The notes beneath the pieces were generated by a model. That model worked only from the letters and a program-made list of their open reading frames with translations. It was not told the DNA's origin and did no database searches. Shown here piece after piece: positions 33,496-49,638 of a DNA stretch of 64,000 nucleotides (positions within the stretch are counted from its first letter, which is position 1; each line of letters opens with the position of its first letter). Location: positions 1,472,001 through 1,536,000 of the forward strand of contig CM000154.2 of the NCBI GenBank assembly GCA_000004695.1, in the 5' to 3' direction. This DNA comes from Dictyostelium discoideum (Eukaryota). The translations under genes were made by a program, and so were the position numbers.

Positions 33496-34295
33496 TTATT
33501 TTTCTAATGTTATTTTTTTAATTTCACCATAAAACTCACCTAAATCAATTTCAAATTTACCATCTTTTTCAACCTCTTTATCAAATAAATTGCCACGATG
33601 TCTTAGTTTTGATTTTGGCAATAGGTCTCTGAAGCTTTTTAAATCACTTTGATTTTTAAATATGATAGGATTACTTTGGTAGTTTTCTATTAGACTTTTC
33701 ATAGTCTGATCAGTATCAAGATTTTAATATCTTTCTTTTGTAATAGGTGATGGATAATGGATACATTTCCATTTATAAAAGTATCTGCAAGAATTTTACC
33801 TTGTACACTTGTTATATTTGGAGGAATTATTACCTTAGATATAACTGATGAATTAGAACTGTTGTGATTTTTATCATTATCTTGTATGTCAATAGAAATT
33901 TTTCCACTTTGGTTATTAATGTCCATTCTGAATGGCAATTTTTTTTCTCCAGAGTATAAAGCAACTGATTTTATACGACTTTCTCCATTTAATAAAATTT
34001 CAGGTTCTTGACCAATCTTTTCAATAATGTTTTGATAAACTTCTAATGATAGTTTTTTTGTAAAATGTTTCAATTTTTCAACTTGAATGATACTATCGGT
34101 GTGTGTGTAGTTATTATCAGATTTACCCTTATACAAATGATCTATGGAATTAGGTGTACTTATACCTTCATCTGTTTCATATGCCACAGTTTTTTTATTT
34201 GCATCAATTAAAAGAGCTTTTGAATGATTTAAATTAGATGCAGCTTCACCATGATCGCCTATTTTAGTATTTATACTGTAATTAAGTTCATACAT
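33496..34295 (-). CDS. Hypothetical protein. Two abutting ORFs, 33699..34295 and 33496..33702, are offset by one base.
   Basis: MYELNYSINTKIGDHGEAASNL...ILILIRL* overlaps the ATG of MKSLIENYQSNPIIFK... as ATGA. No GT..AG intron fits. This is either two small genes, or one gene with a frameshift in the gene or in the sequence. Confidence 0.3.
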
Positions 34296-34560
34296 ATCAC
34301 TTTGATTTTCTTTTAATAATATTTGAAGGATATTTTCAAATTCACTATCGACCGGGTAAATATGAACTATATTAGTGTTTTTTTCCTATTCCCAGGCAGA
34401 AATCGATTTTTTCGAACATTATTTTTTTTTTTTTTTTTTTTTTTAAAGAAATTAATTAAATGAAAGATCTATATTTAGATCTTAGGAAGTTAGTCTATTT
34501 TATTTTATTTTTATCTTTTTCCTAAAAAAATCTTTTTTTTTTATTTTTTTTTATTTTTTA

Positions 34561-35971
34561 TTTTAATTTATAATAATGAGAAGAGAGAATGAATGTAAAG
34601 AAAATGGAGAAAAAAGAAATAATGTAAATTCATTTAATAAAATCATTAAGCTAAGAGTAACTGATGATATTGAATATAGTGAATTATTATTTTGGAAGAT
34701 ATTTAGAAATAGTGATCAATAAAACAATAATGTCATTCATGGATAAACGATTCACACCAAAATATAAAACAATTTCAGATGGAGCTGAAATGATTCGAAA
34801 TAATCAATTCAGTCTATTAAAAGATAAAATTAAAATAAATTGCAGATATTTACAATTTCATGACAAAAGATATTCACAATTTTATGACAAAATAGGTTGT
34901 GAAATTGAAGTTTTAATAAATTATTTAAAACAATCGTTCGCGATAATCAATTTTACAGAAAATTCTTTAGAAACCACCTTTTTGAATATAGAAATAGAGG
35001 AGTAATCATTTCATTAATTATATCAAAGAATTTACAAGTATATCAACTATTCATAGAAGAGTTTAATCATATACCAACTGTTGAGGATTTAAAAATAGCA
35101 ACTTCATTTGGTGCAAACAAATTCATTAGATATCTATTAGAAAAATCACAACTAGAACAACCAAAATTTGAAAGATGATTTAGACAATTATAATTCAATC
35201 TATACAATAGTTACTTCATATAAATCATCAAATTTAAAGAGAGATATGTTTAAAGGATTACTATGCTATTTTAATTGTTATCAAAGTTTAAGAGATCATA
35301 ATAATAATAATAAATAATAATAATAATAATAATAAATTTCAAGAACTAACGATTGATACTCTTTTGAGTATTCACTCGAATAGAGAAAATGGGTTTATAA
35401 TAAAATCAACATCAACAATAAAATCACTATTTAGAGTTTGTAAATTAATATTAAAATTAAAAGTAATGACGAAAACAAATGAATCAGCAAACAACTAATC
35501 AGATTCAGCATCTCCTTCAATTACAATTCAATATATTGAAACATTTATAAAAATAACACCAAAAGAAAAATTAAAATCAACATTAGGAAACCCAATAAAT
35601 TCCAACTTTAACAATGATTGCAAGTATGATGATAGTGATGATGATGATGATGAACAACGTTTTTCTAAATTAATAGCATATCAAATTCAAGAATATTATA
35701 GTAATAGAAATAGAATACCACGGAAAGTATTCTATAAATCAAAAAGTGGTCAAATGGTTCAATTAATTCGTAAACATTGCAGAGATTCAGACTTTTGAAG
35801 TTATGGAAGTTTTTTTAGCTCATTATCAATCAACACATAACCTTTCACCTTCTCCACATTTTAAAGACGCCGAAGAAGTTAGTAATTAATTGCTTGGCTA
35901 ACAAGAACTATTTTTATATACACCCGATTTAGACAGTAGTTTTTTCAAAAGATTTGATAAACAACCTGAAG

Positions 35972-36034
<63 letters not shown>

Positions 36035-37500
36035 GTTGTAGGTCTAATGATGATAATGATGAACATAAAATCTTTATAAAGAAATTATTGGATGAATATT
36101 ATTCGATATTTTGTAAAGATAGATCAGCCATTTTATATTATTATTATTATGATGGATTTAATAATATCAATTTAGAAAATAAAAGTTTATACAGTGTAGA
36201 TTTAGAAGAATATTATGAATCATTTAGATTTGGAATTCCAACATTTGACTTGGTTGGCCATTTTCTTTGTGACTACCTTAACTTTTCATCATTGATAGAT
36301 ATCATGGAATATCCATATAAAAAGTCAATTAATATTTTATTCTCAAACTGTACAGATAGATTAAAAAGATTCGGTTTATAGATAAAGCCATTCAATCAAT
36401 AAAATCAGATGGTTTGCGAAATGTTGAAAATCAATTAACGAATTTCTTTCGTATGGTTGTCATGCACGACGATTTAGAATTAATAAAGTATTTTTTTAAA
36501 CAAGTTAATGGTTATCAATTAGATTTAGGTGGAAATTCACACTACTTATATAGATTTCACCCGACAATTTATATTGGTTCGGTAGATGTTTTAAATTATT
36601 TATTTGAAAATCATAGAGAATACTATTGACCATAAAAACAACTATTATTCCTATTTCGAGAATTTAGAATTATTAAAACATTTTGAAGGATTAACACTCA
36701 AAGTTCCATCAACATCAAGACTTGGTGGATACTTGCAACACTATACTAGAGGTGATAATTTTTAAAATTACGTATCACATCACCAGAAACCGTTTGTATT
36801 TGAGTACTGATTTGATTGAATCAATTTTTTCTTTCTTTCCAGAGAAAACAAGATTCCCAATCAATTTTATTCAATCTACAACTATTAATCTTAAAACATA
36901 CAAACTATTAACAACCATCGTACTTATACAAAGAAATTTCAAAGCCATAAGAATTGGACCAGATGTCTTCTCCAAAGATTTTTTAAACTTTTTAGATTGG
37001 ATATTTACAAATTATCCTAATATGATGAAAATAGGAGGAAGATTTTTTAATTAAAATCAACTACTTAAATTATTTCTTTTTCTAGCTAATAGGTTAAACA
37101 CTGGTGAAATTACTGATAATAATGAACTTGGATACATTCTATGCATCTAATTATGAACATTTTTCATGTTATAATAATTTTAAATATTTAGATTCAATGT
37201 TAAAAAATGTTAAAGATAATGAAATCTTTTTTAGGGCTATTGTAATTGCTGTTGCTAATTCAAGATTACATATTTTAGAATTTTTAAATGAAAAATGTGG
37301 TGATCTTGTAAAAGAAATAAAGAATTATAAAGGATTTAATTTTTTTCTAAATCAAGAATTTCCAAGAGATAATGTAAGGGTATCAGAATTTCTACTTCAA
37401 TTAATTAACCAAGCAGATTCAGAAAAATTATTTGGTCAAAAATCATTATTATATTTCAAATAAATTAAAGTCTTTAAATAAATAAATTTTTATTTTATTT
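34561..37500 (+). pseudogene. Copy A of a duplicated gene unit of about 3 kb. It is co-linear with copy B and carries 1-nt indels relative to it.
   Basis: Segments 34561-34810, 34925-35300, 35950-36700 and 37381-37500 are 90-95% identical to 38086-38325, 41586-42060, 42050-42830 and 44821-44950. Relative to B, A has a 1-nt insertion at about 34677, a 1-nt deletion at about 36365 and a shift at about 36625. These break the MRRENECKENG... ORF and the MDEYYSIFCKDRS... ORF that are intact in B. An (AAT)n tract lies at 35950-36040. Confidence 0.5.
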
Positions 37501-38085
37501 CTTTTTTAGAAACTTTTTTTTTTTTTTTTTTTTGTAGTAAACATTTCATAAAAAGAGAAATTAAATATAATCATATATTAATTAAATATAAAAAGATTAT
37601 AAATAAATTATAAATAAAAAAGATATAAAAAAGATATAAAATAGATTTTTTTTTTTTTTTTCACTGTTTCATCGATTTTATTTATTATTATTCTTATTAT
37701 TCCCATGAATTTATTATTATAGTTAATTCTTTAATTATATATATATTTTTTTTTTAAATAATAATTTTATTTTATTTATTTTAATATGGATTTGGTATAG
37801 AAATAGAACACTCTAAAATACACAAAATGATATAAAAAATGAATGTAATTATTTTTTTTTAATTTTTATTTTTTTTATTTAAATGATTGCATTCTTTTTT
37901 TTTAAAAGAATGATTACATTTATTTTTTGTATTTTTTATATCATTTTATGTATTTTTGAGTACTCTATTTATATGTACTAAATTATATTAAAAATTAATA
38001 AAATTAAATTGTTTAAAAAAAAAAAAAAAAAAAAAAATTTCATTTTTTTTTTTTTTACTTTTTTTTTTTTTTATTTTGGTTTATA

Positions 38086-38334
38086 ATAATGAAAAGAGAG
38101 AATGAATGTAAAGAAAATGGGGAAAAAAGAAATAATGTAAATTCATTTAATAAAATCATTAAGCTAACAGTAACTGATGATATTGAATATGTGAATTATT
38201 ATTTTGGAAGATATTTAGAAATAGTGATCAATAAAATAATAATGTCATTCATGGATAAACGATTCACACCAAAATATAAAACAATTTCAGATGGAGCTGA
38301 AATGATTCGAAATAAATTTTTTGAAAAATATTGA
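38086..38334 (+). pseudogene. Copy B, 5' segment. The ORF is 81 aa, MKRENECKENGEKRNNVNSFNKIIKLTVTDDIEYVNYYFGRYLEIVINKIIMSFMDKRFTPKYKTISDGAEMIRN, then stops a few codons after the insertion junction at about 38326.
   Basis: It is identical in arrangement to copy A at 34561-34810. Similarity to A stops abruptly after ...gattcgaaataa and resumes at about 41586. Confidence 0.5.
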
Positions 38335-38940
38335 CTGTAAAGAGATCTTGAATATTTTTGACTTGAACTAAATGATCACTACCACTATAGTAGTGTAATA
38401 CATCTCTGAATTGAAAAAGAGGTAAGGAACCATCTTCGTTAACTTTGGGTGATTGATAAAGTATTGATGCAGTTTTATACATTTCAAGTCTTTCTACTAC
38501 TTCCTTGATACATTCTGCTGTACAATCTTCCCCAAATTCAAATTCCAGTAAGTTATCATATTGAAAAAGGTTTCAGTAAAATCTGGAAATTTACTACTAT
38601 TATTTTCGAGACGTGGTGTATAGTTGAAATAACAAGAGTTTTCTTCCTTGAAACCACCTACCAAAATGGATATAATTTGAAAAGCACGAGGGCCCATTAT
38701 CATCAAACTTTTTTGGTATATTAACATCATTATAGTACCAACATACAGAGTTCATATAGTTTTTAAACATGGCCTATGTATATTGTATCATTTTTTTTTT
38801 ACATTCTTCACTACATCCATTTTTGATATCAGGAAAAAGATCACCCCTCATGAATTCTTCGATAACAGCAAATGATGTGCCACTGCCTACTCTTTGGAAC
38901 AAATCTTCAAAATTATATTTATCATGAACGCACATTCCAA
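38264..38940 (-). CDS. Cysteine-containing small protein, a paralog of the gene at 39045..39428. It is split over three frames, by introns or by decay.
   Basis: The minus-strand translation gives ...GDLFPDIKNGCSEECKKKMIQYT / AMFKNYMNSVCWYYNDVNIPKKFDDNGPRAFQ... / ...VNEDGSLPLFQFRDV..., which parallels FPLFTQGCTNECKEKMIKITQYVYKYQSNALCWFFNDAKLIRDK...NEDGSLPDYPN of the neighbouring ORF. Confidence 0.3.
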
Positions 38941-39044
38941 CAATTGTATATAAAAAATGAAATAAAAAAAATAAAAAAAAAAAAAAAAATAAAAAATCAA
39001 TTAATAAAAACTTTTTTTTTTTTTTAATTTTTAATTTTTATTTT

Positions 39045-39428
39045 TTAACTATGTAAGGTATTTGGATAATCTGGAAGGCTACCATCTTCATTTAATTCAA
39101 TTGATAAATCAAAACCATGTTCAAAATCTTTTTTATTTCCACGTCCCGATAATGAATCTAGATATGAGCCTGGGGTGATACTTTTATCTCTAATTAACTT
39201 GGCGTCGTTGAAGAACCAGCACAAGGCATTGGATTGATATTTGTACACATATTGGGTTATTTTTATCATCTTTTCTTTACACTCATTGGTACATCCTTGA
39301 GTAAATAAAGGGAAGTTGTCCCCTACTGTCAATATTTCTAAATACCTAAGAGGTACTTTTACAGCACCATCAAAGGTTAGGCTCTCGTGAGGGCACACTT
39401 TATATTTTCTACAATTATAATTTAACAT
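39045..39428 (-). CDS. Small cysteine-containing hypothetical protein of 127 aa
   Basis: The ORF is intact: MLNYNCRKYKVCPHESLTFDGAVKVPLRYLEILTVGDNFPLFTQGCTNECKEKMIKITQYVYKYQSNALCWFFNDAKLIRDKSITPGSYLDSLSGRGNKKDFEHGFDLSIELNEDGSLPDYPNTLHS. It has a paralog immediately downstream. Confidence 0.4.
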   Translation of the reverse strand: MLNYNCRKYKVCPHESLTFDGAVKVPLRYLEILTVGDNFPLFTQGCTNECKEKMIKITQYVYKYQSNALCWFFNDAKLIRDKSITPGSYLDSLSGRGNKKDFEHGFDLSIELNEDGSLPDYPNTLHS

Positions 39429-39817
39429 TTTAAAAATATATGTAAAATATTGGGTGGTGGTTAAATAAAAGCTATTTTTTTTTAAAAAAAAAAAAAATAA
39501 AAAAAAAAAAAAAAATAAAAATAAAATAAAAAAAAAAATTAATAAAAATAAACAACCTAAATAATTAAGAAAAGTTGGGTTATTTGTATTTTACATTTTT
39601 TTTTATGAAAACAACCACTAAAAATATACATACAATTAAAGTTAAAAATAGAAACAAGCAAAACAAAAATGGTAGCAAATTAAAATAATAATAATAAAAA
39701 TAAATTAAATAAAAATAAATTAAAAAATTATTTAAATAAAAAAAAAAAAAAAATTACCATTAAATTAATTATTTTTTTTATCTTCATTATATACAATTTA
39801 ATTTCATTAATTTTTTA

Positions 39818-41272
39818 ATGGCAAAACTAAAAATAATTATTTATATTGTAATAATTTTTTGTAGTAGTATCCAATTTTCTTTTGGATACGAAAAGGCGAT
39901 TGCTTCATTTTATCCACCTCCAGGTGATTTGCATCCCACTACTCATAATTTTTGGGCATGTAATAGTGTCATTAACCAAAACGGTGGATTCGGTCCACTT
40001 GAATGCAATAATGCCGGTATCTATGCAATTTTCTCGACCGCCAATGAGATCATCGACGGTAATGAATACATGCTTCCACTATTTTATATTGGAAGATCCA
40101 CTATAGATGTTCGAGATAGAATTGCTGATCACAGTAGACGAAACCATGTTGATAATGATTTCATTGTGTGTTATATGCGTTTCCCAGCATTGGATGATTA
40201 TGGTTACAGTAACAAAGTAACACCCGTTGAACAAGCTCTCCTTCACCAATTCAAAACTCAATTCAACTCATGGGATAACCTCGGTTTTGATCCACAGTAT
40301 GATACTGCTTATCCAGATGAAAATGGTTTGGGATGGGATATCCTTGCATCTTTTTATAATATGGATATCAATGCTCCATCTTTTAATATTGAAAAAGAGC
40401 CAGGCTTTGTATGGAATGGTCAAACTAATGGACATACTGAACGTTTCGTCCAATCATCATTAAAAGCTGATCAATCTGAAATATTTCCAGAGGGTATACC
40501 ATTCAGAACTGGTGAAGTAGCCATAGAAGGCAGTGATTTCTGTAATAGAACTGAAGAGGATTATACTTTTCATTCGCAGGGCTACTACCTAAGAATATCA
40601 AATGCTTTGGCATCAAGAAATAAGAATTCAAATCAAAATCAAAATCAAAATCAAAATCAAAATCAAAATCAAAATCAAAATCAAAATCAAAATCAAAATC
40701 AAAATCAAAATCATAATCAGAATCAAAATCCACATTCAAACTTTCAGGTTTCTAATGATCAATTAATTGCTATAGATGTTGGTATTGCAGGTGGTGCTAT
40801 CGTTGCAGGCGCTGGTGCAGCAGCAGCCGGTGCAGCAGCCGGTGCTGAGGGTGGTGCCGCAGGAGTTGCTTCCAGAGCTGGTGGTTATATTTCTCGTACT
40901 GCTAGTCGTGTTGGTAACTCTATACGTAGCAGAGCTACTCGTTATGCTAATCAAGGTTACAATTCCATGAGAAATGGTGCACAAAGAGCTGGCAACGGCG
41001 CACGTAATTATGCTAATGAAGGTTACAATTCCGTGAGAGATGGTGCACAAAGAGCTGGCAACGGCGCACGTAATTATGCTCAACAAGGTTATCAAGCATG
41101 GAGAGAAGGTGTCAATGAGATTGGTGATGATATCGCCAATACTGCACATGATGTAGGTGATGGTTTCGCCAATACTGCACGTGAAGTAGGTGATGGAATT
41201 AGAATCACTGCAGAGGAGGGATATGAACTCATTAAAGATGGAGCTGAAGAAACTTGGGTGAAGAAATATTAA
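39818..41272 (+). CDS. Signal-peptide protein of 484 aa. It has an N-terminal GIY-YIG-like domain, an (NQ)n linker, a Gly/Ala-rich hydrophobic segment and a C-terminal tandem-repeat region.
   Basis: The signal-peptide-like N-terminus is MAKLKIIIYIVIIFCSSIQFSFG. Then ...AGIYAIFSTANEIIDGNEYMLPLFYIGRSTIDVRDRIADH....PVEQALLHQFKTQFNSWDNLGF has the GIY / YIG-S/T-x7-R-x3-H / E / N order of GIY-YIG nuclease folds, with an unusually long GIY-YIG spacer. (AATCAA)n at 40621-40735 encodes (NQ)17. LIAIDVGIAGGAIVAGAGAAAAGAAAG is a predicted transmembrane or flexible segment. The C-terminal repeats are RYANQGYNSMRNGAQRAGNGARNYA(N/Q)EGYNSVRDGAQRAGNGARNYA. Confidence 0.6.
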   Translation: MAKLKIIIYIVIIFCSSIQFSFGYEKAIASFYPPPGDLHPTTHNFWACNSVINQNGGFGPLECNNAGIYAIFSTANEIIDGNEYMLPLFYIGRSTIDVRDRIADHSRRNHVDNDFIVCYMRFPALDDYGYSNKVTPVEQALLHQFKTQFNSWDNLGFDPQYDTAYPDENGLGWDILASFYNMDINAPSFNIEKEPGFVWNGQTNGHTERFVQSSLKADQSEIFPEGIPFRTGEVAIEGSDFCNRTEEDYTFHSQGYYLRISNALASRNKNSNQNQNQNQNQNQNQNQNQNQNQNQNQNHNQNQNPHSNFQVSNDQLIAIDVGIAGGAIVAGAGAAAAGAAAGAEGGAAGVASRAGGYISRTASRVGNSIRSRATRYANQGYNSMRNGAQRAGNGARNYANEGYNSVRDGAQRAGNGARNYAQQGYQAWREGVNEIGDDIANTAHDVGDGFANTAREVGDGIRITAEEGYELIKDGAEETWVKKY

Positions 41273-41585
41273 AGGTTATCCTTAATTAAAATTAAAAAAG
41301 CACAACAAAGAATGGCTGAACAAGAAGAAAGAAGAAGGTTGATGCAAGAAGAAAGTGAAAGAAGACGATTGCAAAGAAACAGAGAAAGACAAGAGCCAAT
41401 TAGAACTTATACAACTGCACAAGAAGCTCAACGATATATACCCAAACCTGGTAACTTTGCACGTAAAAGAGGTGCAAGAAATTAAAAAAAGAAAAAATAA
41501 AAATAATTAAAAGAAATAAAAAAAAAAAAAATTAAAAATTAAAAATTTTAAAAAAAAAAAAATAAACTACATCTCTTATATATAA

Positions 41586-42042
41586 AATAAATTATTCAAA
41601 ACAATCATTAGCGATAATGAATTTTACAGAAAATTCTTTAGAAACCACCTTTTTGAATTTACTAATAGAAAAGTAATCATTTCATTAATTACATCAAAGA
41701 ATTTACAAGTATATCAACTTTTTATAGAAGAGTTTAATCATACACCATCTGTTTATGATCTAAAAATAGTAATTTCAGTTGGTGCTAACAAATTCATTAG
41801 ATATCTATTAGAACAATCACAACTAGAACAATCAAAATTTAAAATAAACATATCAAAAGATGATTTAGATAATTATAATTCAATTGATACAATAGTTGCT
41901 CCAAATAAAGTTATTTCAAATTTAAGAAAAATTATTATAAATAATTCTTCTAAATTTTTTTTTCCATTTAAATTATTAAATTTAAAGAGAGATATGTTTA
42001 AAGGATTACTATGCTATTTTAATTGTTATCAAAGTTAAAGAG

Positions 42043-42135
<93 letters not shown>

Positions 42136-42830
42136 GTTGTAGGTCTAATGATGATGATGAACATAAAACCTTTATAAAGAAATTATTGGATGAATATTAT
42201 TCAATATTTTGTAAAGATAGATCAGTCATTATATATTATTATTACGATGGATTTAATAATATCAATTTAGAAAATAATAGTTTATACAGTGTAGATTTAG
42301 AAGAATATTATGAATCATTTAGATTTGGAATTCCAACATTTGACTTGGTTGGTCATTTTCTTTATGACCACCTTAATTTTAAATCATTGATAGATATCAT
42401 GGAATATCCATATAAAAAGTCAATTAATATTTTATTCTCAAATTGTACAGATAGATTAAAAAAGATTCAGTTAATAGATAAAGCCATTCAATCAATAAAA
42501 TCAGATGGTTTGCGAAATGTTGAAAATCAATTAACGAATTTCTTTTATATGGTTGTCATGCACGACGATTTAGAATTAATAAAGTATTTTTTCAAACAAA
42601 TTAATGGTTATCAATTACATTTGGGTGGTGGGGGTGGAGATTTACATTACTTATATATGTTTAACCCAACAATTTATATTGGTTCGGTAGATGTTTTAAA
42701 TTATTTATTTGAAAATCATAGAGAATATTTTATTGATGATAAATATAACTATTATTCCTATTTCAAGAATTTAGAATTATTAAAACACTTTGAAGCATTA
42801 TATATTTCAAATAAATCTTTAAATAAATAA
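41586..42830 (+). pseudogene. Copy B, 3' segment. It contains an intact 214-aa ORF at 42186..42830 (MDEYYSIFCKDRSVIIYYYYDGFNNINLENNSLYSV...FENHREYFIDDKYNYYSYFKNLELLKHFEALYISNKSLNK).
   Basis: It is co-linear with copy A at 34925-36700. (AAT)n lies at 42050-42130. Downstream of 42840 the similarity to A is lost for about 2 kb, and it resumes at 44821-44950, which matches A at 37381-37500. Confidence 0.5.

Positions 42831-45709: not shown

Positions 45710-49638
<3,929 letters not shown>

Follow-up and report, generated by a model that had tools for sequence, protein, structure and literature searches.

This study describes the gene for a predicted nuclease in a window of 64,000 nucleotides from Dictyostelium discoideum (the whole stretch that was analysed; assembly GCA_000004695.1, contig CM000154.2, positions 1,472,001 to 1,536,000 of the forward strand). 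The gene is a complete, single-exon open reading frame (ORF) of 484 amino acids on the plus strand, extending from the ATG at window position 39818 to the TAA at 41270-41272 (39818 to 41272 with the stop, from the ORF listing). Taken as a whole, our results are best explained by a secreted, membrane-tethered GIY-YIG ecto-nuclease. We hold this reading to be reasonably probable, and under it the ORF is functional and belongs to a family, not annotated before, that occurs only in the Dictyostelium/Polysphondylium violaceum lineage. Homology of its domain to GIY-YIG proteins, considered separately, is highly probable: motifs and modelled fold both support a divergent member of this superfamily, with predicted activity. 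GIY-YIG nucleases are textbook intracellular enzymes of repair, recombination, restriction and homing. The predicted features thus support a new lineage-restricted GIY-YIG family with an unprecedented secretory or membrane architecture.

The window is very AT-rich, with short and GC-richer coding islands, as is typical of dictyostelid genomes. Direct reading of the translation placed the GIY box at residues 67-69 (nucleotides 40016-40024), followed by YIGRSTIDVRDRIADH (residues 90-105, spanning YIG to H105) and by VEQALLHQFKTQFNSWDNLG (residues 137-156, containing E138 and N150). The candidate catalytic positions are Y69, Y90, R101, H105, E138 and N150. A sequence-only reading of this DNA, made without database searches, had pointed to GIY, YIG, Arg, His/Tyr, Glu and Asn following one another in the order of GIY-YIG nucleases, and the translation confirmed it. 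Its remark that the spacer between GIY and YIG is about twice the usual length also proved accurate, since Y69 and Y90 are 21 residues apart against 11 in I-TevI (Y6 to Y17).

When the isolated domain was compared with Pfam, PF01541 was the only match (E = 0.013-0.026). The same family was matched by six of the 13 intact cores of homologous proteins (see below), among which P0019 reached 23.7 bits (E = 6e-5), above the gathering score of 22.6, and P0020 reached 18.9 bits. The window core stayed below this threshold (16.3 bits at best) and P0019 passed it; it is therefore by transitive homology, through its family, that the window protein is counted in the superfamily. The other Pfam families recurring among the cores were MUG113 and GIY_YIG_2 only, both of GIY-YIG type. 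Scans of the cores against PHROGs and NCBIfam gave nothing significant (Cho appeared at E = 0.19). PADLOC gave weak matches to PDC-S14, which stands for a candidate anti-phage system of prokaryotes (three of the 13 cores, best E = 0.0025), and to UzuA (one core). Matches of the full-length protein to Presenilin, PsbI, WalE1 and FAM155A in Pfam, NCBIfam and PDB sequences were dismissed as compositional, low-complexity noise.

A more direct link was obtained by profile-profile alignment. The sequence of the I-TevI catalytic domain was checked against PDB entries 1MK0 and 1LN0, 12 diverse phage homologues were gathered, and a 15-sequence profile of phage GIY-YIG homing endonucleases was used, in which Y17, G19, R27, H31 and E75 are invariant columns. 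In a single planned comparison, hhalign aligned the family profile A3 to this phage profile with P = 0.0012, pairing Y90, G92, R101 and H105 with I-TevI Y17, G19, R27 and H31. Low-confidence greedy and global alignments likewise paired GIY with GIY and E138 with I-TevI E75. The Pfam hidden Markov model (HMM) also aligned residues 90-92 to the YIG box. Y90 and R101 are 11 residues apart, against 10 in I-TevI. Comparisons with I-TevI alone or with a shallow profile of seq­uences from seven proteins were uninformative and were superseded by the 15-sequence profile. In the published classification (PMC1564403), the Slx1 lineage is devoid of the C-terminal Asn; with its near-invariant N150 as the candidate for this Asn, the family would go with the lineage of UvrC, homing endonucleases and restriction endonucleases and not with that of Slx1.

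A word-indexed search recovered one fragment only. When 1.84 billion representatives were searched exhaustively with phmmer, 17 proteins were obtained, one of which (P0008, 749 amino acids with W-rich repeats) was discarded as a spurious repeat match, and a profile search added 11 more. They originate from D. purpureum, D. firmibasis, D. dimigraforme, D. discoideum isolates, D. cf. discoideum and Polysphondylium violaceum. All are labelled "hypothetical proteins" and none carries a precomputed Pfam domain of GIY-YIG type. The window contains one member. The AX4 entry in the protein set is a degenerate, frame-scrambled fragment of 171 amino acids (DDB_G0269010, P0025), of which no mention was found in the literature searched.

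Across about 23 homologues, the GIY-YIG catalytic set forms the most conserved polar positions of the domain, so that the motif residues flagged from the window alone turned out to be kept in the family: G92 (18/18), R101 (18/19), E138 (21/23), N150 (21/22), Y69 (15/18, the others being W, F or M), Y90 (15/18, plus three Trp) and H105 (15/19). E138 is invariant across the 13 intact cores. Conservation extended beyond these motifs to four near-invariant cysteines (C48 14/15, C63 18/19, C118 21/22 and C242 21/21), to the N-terminal extension (Y32 15/16, H39 15/15, W46 13/14) and to the C-terminal subdomain (D174 20/21, I175 19/21). The gene is under purifying selection: compared with the copy of a D. 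discoideum isolate (locus L005; synonymous divergence, dS, 0.20), the ratio of nonsynonymous to synonymous divergence (dN/dS) was 0.17 over the whole gene, with values of 0.22 in the N-domain, 0.27 in the core and 0.03 in the tail. The L005 copy has one in-frame stop at codon 112 (L005 8334-8336) and is otherwise intact, with more NQ units and three 22-residue repeats. Protein identity to the D. purpureum orthologue is 37%.

The predicted structure agrees with this assignment. An AlphaFold2 model of residues 24-266, built with the family alignment, reached a predicted local distance difference test score (pLDDT) of 81.4 and a predicted template modelling score of 0.83, being weaker at about 201-215; a core-only model reached a pLDDT of 84.6. 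Along the chain, the elements run beta(GIY)-hairpin-beta(YIG)-alpha(R101, H105)-beta(IVCYM)-alpha(E138), with Y69 in model strand E44-49 and E138 in model helix H111-121, and the long GIY-YIG spacer is modelled as an inserted beta-hairpin. In a structure comparison of the model, the top 40 included I-TevI (4.6, 24% identity), PD-T4-3, HIGLE, Hpy188I and SLX1. Together, model and sequence support the assignment of a GIY-YIG core fold, in which helices flank a beta-sheet of three strands.

The product appears modular. A predicted signal peptide (residues 1-23, 39818 to 39886, plus strand, from a hydropathy heuristic) is composed of MAKLK, a 17-residue hydrophobic core and SFG, with YE following the putative cut. 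Residues 4-22 have a Kyte-Doolittle value of 2.07, with the n-h-c layout and small residues at -3 and -1. It is followed by a family-specific extension (residues 24-59, 39887 to 39994, FYPPPxxxHPxTxxxWxC), which is conserved, modelled with beta-strands and includes Cys48. The divergent GIY-YIG core (residues 60-162, 39995 to 40303) comprises C63, GIY at 67-69, the hairpin at about 77-84, YIG at 90-92, R101, H105, C118, E138 and N150; the plus-strand codons are 40085-40093 for YIG, 40118-40120 for R101, 40130-40132 for H105, 40229-40231 for E138 and 40265-40267 for N150. A second family-specific part of the putative ectodomain, defined by conservation and the model, covers residues 163-265 (40304 to 40612; NGLxxDILxSFYNMDINxP, FPEGIPxxxG and C242). 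No Pfam family matched this subdomain, and one N-glycosylation sequon, N243-R-T, directly follows C242.

Downstream of the ectodomain, an in-frame (AAATCA)n microsatellite (40630 to 40730, plus strand) encodes an (NQ)n linker. It had been read as (NQ)17, which is roughly right in view of the 16.8 copies (period 6, 96% matches) counted by Tandem Repeats Finder (TRF), although just 13 NQ units are perfect and the others are imperfect. The hydrophobic, glycine-zipper-like segment that had also been noted is a Gly/Ala-rich stretch (residues 316-345, 40763 to 40852), a candidate single transmembrane helix by hydropathy, followed by an Arg-rich stretch. Its residues 316-334 score 1.87 on the Kyte-Doolittle scale, above the classical cut-off of 1.6, and form the sole hydrophobic stretch besides the signal-like N-terminus. 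The tail (residues 346-484, 40853 to 41269) is rich in Gly, Ala, Arg, Asn and Tyr. The 22-residue C-terminal repeats of the sequence-only reading were recovered by TRF (66-nucleotide unit, 2.3-2.6 copies, 40942-41111), next to 11-residue repeats that it had not mentioned (33-nucleotide unit, 2.2 copies, 41123-41196). The tail also displays four GYxx[MVWI] tetrapeptides, at residues 380, 402, 424 and 468. GYxxPhi is the consensus of LAMP-type tyrosine-based endolysosomal sorting signals; here the match is a lead, since the Tyr is not kept in D. purpureum, whose orthologue has a tail of weak similarity (tblastn E = 1.8e-5). An antisense ORF of 128 amino acids (40763-41149, minus strand), rich in Ser, Thr, Cys and Ile and recurring in L005, was set aside, being explained most simply by the repeats and the GC-richness of the sense strand.

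Features of secretory type recurred in the family. Each of the nine homologues that are complete at the 5' end has a hydrophobic, signal-like N-terminus, and gene models starting with "MRRLAS" begin just past such a segment. A Gly/Ala hydrophobic segment (Kyte-Doolittle 1.7-2.2) was observed in six members of the clade of the window protein, including P0001, P0004, P0006, P0009 and P0015; its carriers comprise the D. purpureum orthologue and a P. violaceum member. The near-invariant cysteines are what one would expect of a domain that is held by disulfides in a lumen or outside the cell. From hydropathy, the -3/-1 rule, the conserved cysteines and the positive-inside rule, we infer secretion and topology, and the protein is most likely a type I membrane-anchored, disulfide-bonded, metal-dependent nuclease with its predicted catalytic domain outside the cell or in a lumen. 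The tentative proposal of a GIY-YIG-type domain behind a signal peptide, made at first sight of the sequence, was supported by PF01541, by the hhalign comparison and by conservation.

A working scheme can be proposed on this basis. A cleavable signal peptide, cut near G23/Y24, would take the product into the endoplasmic reticulum and the secretory pathway, where two disulfides would form in an ectodomain of about 240 residues with the GIY-YIG core at residues 60-160 or so. In the clade of the window protein, this ectodomain would stand on the (NQ)n stalk, with one Gly/Ala-rich transmembrane helix and a repeat-bearing cytosolic tail, in type I topology. If characterised GIY-YIG enzymes are a guide, phosphodiester cleavage would depend on a single divalent metal bound by E138; Y69, Y90, R101 and H105 would surround the scissile phosphate, while N150 would buttress the fold. 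Since the domain would face the outside or the endo- or phagolysosomal lumen, the proposed substrate is extracellular or ingested nucleic acid, e.g. from bacterial prey. Catalytic activity, substrate and biological role are all inferred, and degradation of ingested or extracellular nucleic acid would be the most economical role in a bacterivorous phagocyte.

Comparison with known systems underlines how unusual this arrangement would be. GIY-YIG restriction endonucleases (R.Eco29kI, PDB 3MX4; Hpy188I) are cytoplasmic, bacterial and paired with a methyltransferase, without signal peptide, disulfides or membrane anchor, and their relationship to the amoeba family was undetectable by HMM-to-sequence search. 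The UvrC/Cho N-terminal nuclease domain (PDB 1YCZ) belongs to a cytoplasmic repair enzyme acting with UvrB and shares none of the family-specific extensions. I-TevI (PDB 1LN0/1MK0) differs by its spacer (11 against 21 residues) and by the distance from Glu to Asn (15 against 12). Homing endonucleases of phages and organelles have a linker and a DNA-binding domain, whereas the amoeba gene does not have this combination, lies on a nuclear chromosome, encodes predicted secretory signals and displays no intron or homing context; no NUMOD, IENR1 or helix-turn-helix (HTH) type DNA-binding module of Pfam, NCBIfam or PHROGs was found in the protein. Judged from these accessory and contextual features, which the sequence does not display, the protein is neither a Penelope-type module nor a homing endonuclease. 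Among eukaryotes, SLX1, ANKLE1, plant HIGLE, GRXS16 and MSH1, the Penelope-element endonuclease and ANKLE2 Unc-1 act in the nucleus, the cytosol or organelles; ANKLE2 is membrane-anchored, but its GIY-YIG-like domain is devoid of the motifs and inactive (PMC13179284). The survey of the superfamily published in 2006 made no mention of signal peptides or transmembrane segments (PMC1564403). In the literature searched, which is incomplete so that absence is not proof, no secreted eukaryotic GIY-YIG protein was encountered, and exported GIY-YIG domains occurred in bacterial toxins only.

Several observations weigh against a secreted GIY-YIG ecto-nuclease. At the sequence level, the window protein scored 13.6-16.3 bits against PF01541, short of the gathering score, and at full length it had no Pfam match of significance. 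When PDB sequences were searched with HMMs from the family profiles A2 and A3, no GIY-YIG protein came up, and the one match was a syntaxin (E = 0.83). The calibrated probability of the hhalign comparison was 19.5%, with about 20 columns aligned confidently, and no alignment placed N150, 12 residues past E138, confidently on I-TevI N90. At the structural level, Foldseek comparisons of the whole-domain and core models with the PDB gave nothing at E<=0.001, a method that we judged less sensitive. H105 is replaced by N or D in four of 19 members. As to the membrane anchor, the Gly/Ala segment includes an Asp (D320), which is atypical for a transmembrane helix, and the "MRRLAS" clade has no such segment, so that its proteins may be soluble. 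Finally, several copies in other genomes are pseudogenes, from which it follows that the family is dispensable. The copy of D. cf. discoideum (locus L001, 9551-11238), for instance, has lost its start codon and has accumulated stops, frameshifts and deletions; it forms a fusion with a fragment of methionine synthase (Met_synt_B12) and lies next to retroelement genes.

One alternative is a pseudo-nuclease, in which the GIY-YIG fold would serve, without catalysis, as an ectodomain for scaffolding or for binding nucleic acid or another ligand. ANKLE2 Unc-1 offers an example, resembling GIY-YIG domains structurally while being inactive (PMC13179284), and it too counts against an active enzyme here. 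The incomplete conservation of H105 (15/19), the loss of E138 or N150 in paralogues P0021 and P0022, and the lack of any DNA-binding accessory domain in Pfam scans of the protein go in the same direction. Yet, in contrast to the motif-less ANKLE2, the family keeps Y69, Y90, G92, R101, E138 and N150 at 83-100%, and the core is under purifying selection (dN/dS 0.27). We therefore regard loss of catalysis as a rather improbable account of the family.

Another alternative retains the nuclease and changes its purpose, making it a toxin or defence effector in conflicts between strains or between predator and prey, like the polymorphic toxins of bacteria. GIY-YIG domains are carried by bacterial Rhs effectors of type VI secretion systems (T6SS) and by TANFOR toxins (PMC11669294, PMC7073777), so that use of this fold as a weapon has a precedent. 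The family is lineage-restricted, multi-copy and fast-diverging (37% identity to the D. purpureum orthologue against 65% for the neighbouring exon), is frequently pseudogenised and differs in presence or absence among isolates; its paralogues lie near transposons, and the L005 copy lies near a large TIG/EGF surface-protein gene. The likeness to PAAR-RhsA-GIY-YIG T6SS effectors and TANFOR toxins is that of a GIY-YIG domain exported from the producing cell, compared here at the superfamily level: the bacterial proteins carry the nuclease as a C-terminal cassette, are delivered into target cells by the T6SS or the type IX secretion system and come with an immunity gene (PMC11669294, PMC7073777), whereas the amoeba nuclease sits at the N-terminus of a eukaryotic protein that is of Sec type and probably tethered to a membrane. 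In the family, no module for delivery or translocation could be recognised. Nor was a conserved immunity-like partner found, the 57-codon ORF next to the gene being without ATG in L005 and not detected in D. purpureum. With dN/dS well below 1 and all of the evidence circumstantial, a conflict effector of this kind is an improbable reading. A bolder version of the ecto-nuclease, which we regard as speculative and on the unlikely side, would make the Sec-routed family a fast-evolving, strain-variable weapon against bacterial prey or rival strains, used in phagosomes or on the cell surface, with the conserved repeat tail controlling trafficking and the small ORF or the neighbour gene as a partner, i.e. 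a eukaryotic counterpart of polymorphic nuclease toxins.

The third alternative concerns the locus itself. The gene lies in one of two tandem paralogous copies, copy A (34533-34803 and 34915-35237) and copy B (38047-38315 and 41586-41925), with 97% and 86% identity between the respective segments (blastn). A block of 3,271 bp (38316 to 41585, from blastn and junction alignment) is present in copy B and absent from copy A, which has about 110 bp and a continuous ORF at this place; it contains minus-strand fragments of a neighbour gene, the nuclease gene and the 57-codon ORF. The sequence-only reading had described a 3.3-kb insertion splitting another gene: the extra DNA relative to the tandem paralogue is there, but it is not proven whether B gained it by insertion or A lost it by deletion, since about 105 bp unique to copy A occur nowhere else. 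In view of this location, the same reading had suggested a domesticated or mobile-element-derived nuclease module. In its strongest form, a free-standing homing-type or transposon-derived enzyme would have produced the block, and the hydrophobic N-terminus would be incidental. In its favour, the block is absent from a paralogue 92-97% identical and breaks up what is one uninterrupted ORF in copy A, a related block in L001 shares its left boundary with different flanks, and invasion of organellar genes by free-standing GIY-YIG genes is known (PMC4466345).

Closer inspection did not uphold this origin. At the block ends (38316 and 41585), neither terminal repeats, be they direct or inverted, nor a target-site duplication could be seen, the one feature there being A/T low complexity. 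No Pfam family matched the ORFs of the block, and no reverse transcriptase, transposase or NUMOD/HTH DNA-binding domain was found in the nuclease ORF or the block. The predicted signal peptide, the four conserved cysteines and the candidate transmembrane segment are conserved across the family, the last of these not in the "MRRLAS" clade. Furthermore, the nuclease is not the sole cargo, as the block carries two or three genes, and the gene-neighbour pair is syntenic in D. purpureum. The D. purpureum orthologue has a homologue of the neighbour exon directly upstream in the same divergent orientation (L004 5349-5723). The pair thus predates the split between D. discoideum and D. purpureum, the flanking tandem duplication being recent. 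The L001 block, with the same left boundary and other flanks, indicates that the block moved or was rearranged as a segment; nothing implicates the nuclease in this movement. Other family members were not located at comparable junctions, their contexts being different and non-recurrent across genomes; some paralogues lie beside retrotransposon or DDE-transposase genes, which we read as typical of dynamic, lineage-specific neighbourhoods. A mobile nuclease is accordingly a very improbable origin for the block. As for a chance resemblance, i.e. a coincidental motif order on an unrelated alpha/beta fold, it is the least credible reading of all, very improbable even with a sub-threshold window sequence in Pfam and negative Foldseek and PDB sequence-profile searches on its side.

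The surroundings of the gene were also recorded. The divergent neighbour exon is an ORF of 127 amino acids (39045 to 39428, minus strand) with the Cys-rich motif CTxxCKEKMIKxTQY, and its homologues lie beside the D. purpureum and L005 copies. In L005, this homologue is the first exon of an FNIP-repeat gene adjoining the nuclease copy; the FNIP-repeat exons that follow it there (L005 6326-7003) are missing from the window. A second, decayed copy of the exon at about 38717-38935 (within 38264-38940, minus strand) is fragmented and closer to D. purpureum (65% at the amino acid level). Directly upstream of the FNIP and nuclease block of L005 lies a gene of 1,891 amino acids of TIG plus EGF/teneurin type (L005 31-6199, plus strand), which suggests a large cell-surface protein.

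Forty bp past the nuclease stop begins the Arg/Glu-rich ORF of 57 codons (41312-41485, plus strand; MAEQEERRRLMQEESERRRLQRN...). Its region is 95.8% identical to L005 at the DNA level, with three peptide changes, and is better conserved than the nuclease gene. The L005 counterpart has no ATG, is preceded by an acceptor-like ...TTATTAG and has 441 bp of extra sequence upstream. This ORF could be a small gene or the 3' exon of something else; splicing onto the nuclease ORF was rejected, a possible intron of 45 nucleotides being out of frame.

The recent tandem duplication as a whole (34533-36693 and 38047-42800, 92-97% identity) concerns an unannotated gene of Dictyostelium type, with ORFs at 34664-35005 and 36088-36381 in copy A and at 38089-38334 and 42186-42830 in copy B, none of which matched Pfam. 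Copy A has its own extra sequence of about 640 bp between 35335 and 35972. Elsewhere in the window, an ORF of 198 amino acids was found at 33699-34295, and, downstream of the nuclease gene, a WD40-like ORF of 1,217 amino acids (45985-49638, plus strand) that includes (NE)n repeats and a long run of poly-Asn.

If a secreted, membrane-tethered GIY-YIG ecto-nuclease is the right reading, a eukaryote would possess a GIY-YIG ectodomain that is conserved, under selection and catalytically intact, and the range of compartments in which this fold operates would be widened. It would likewise provide a fold and a testable activity for about two dozen "hypothetical" Dictyostelium proteins, and would make the family a candidate means by which a professional phagocyte breaks down prey or extracellular nucleic acids, or combats its competitors.

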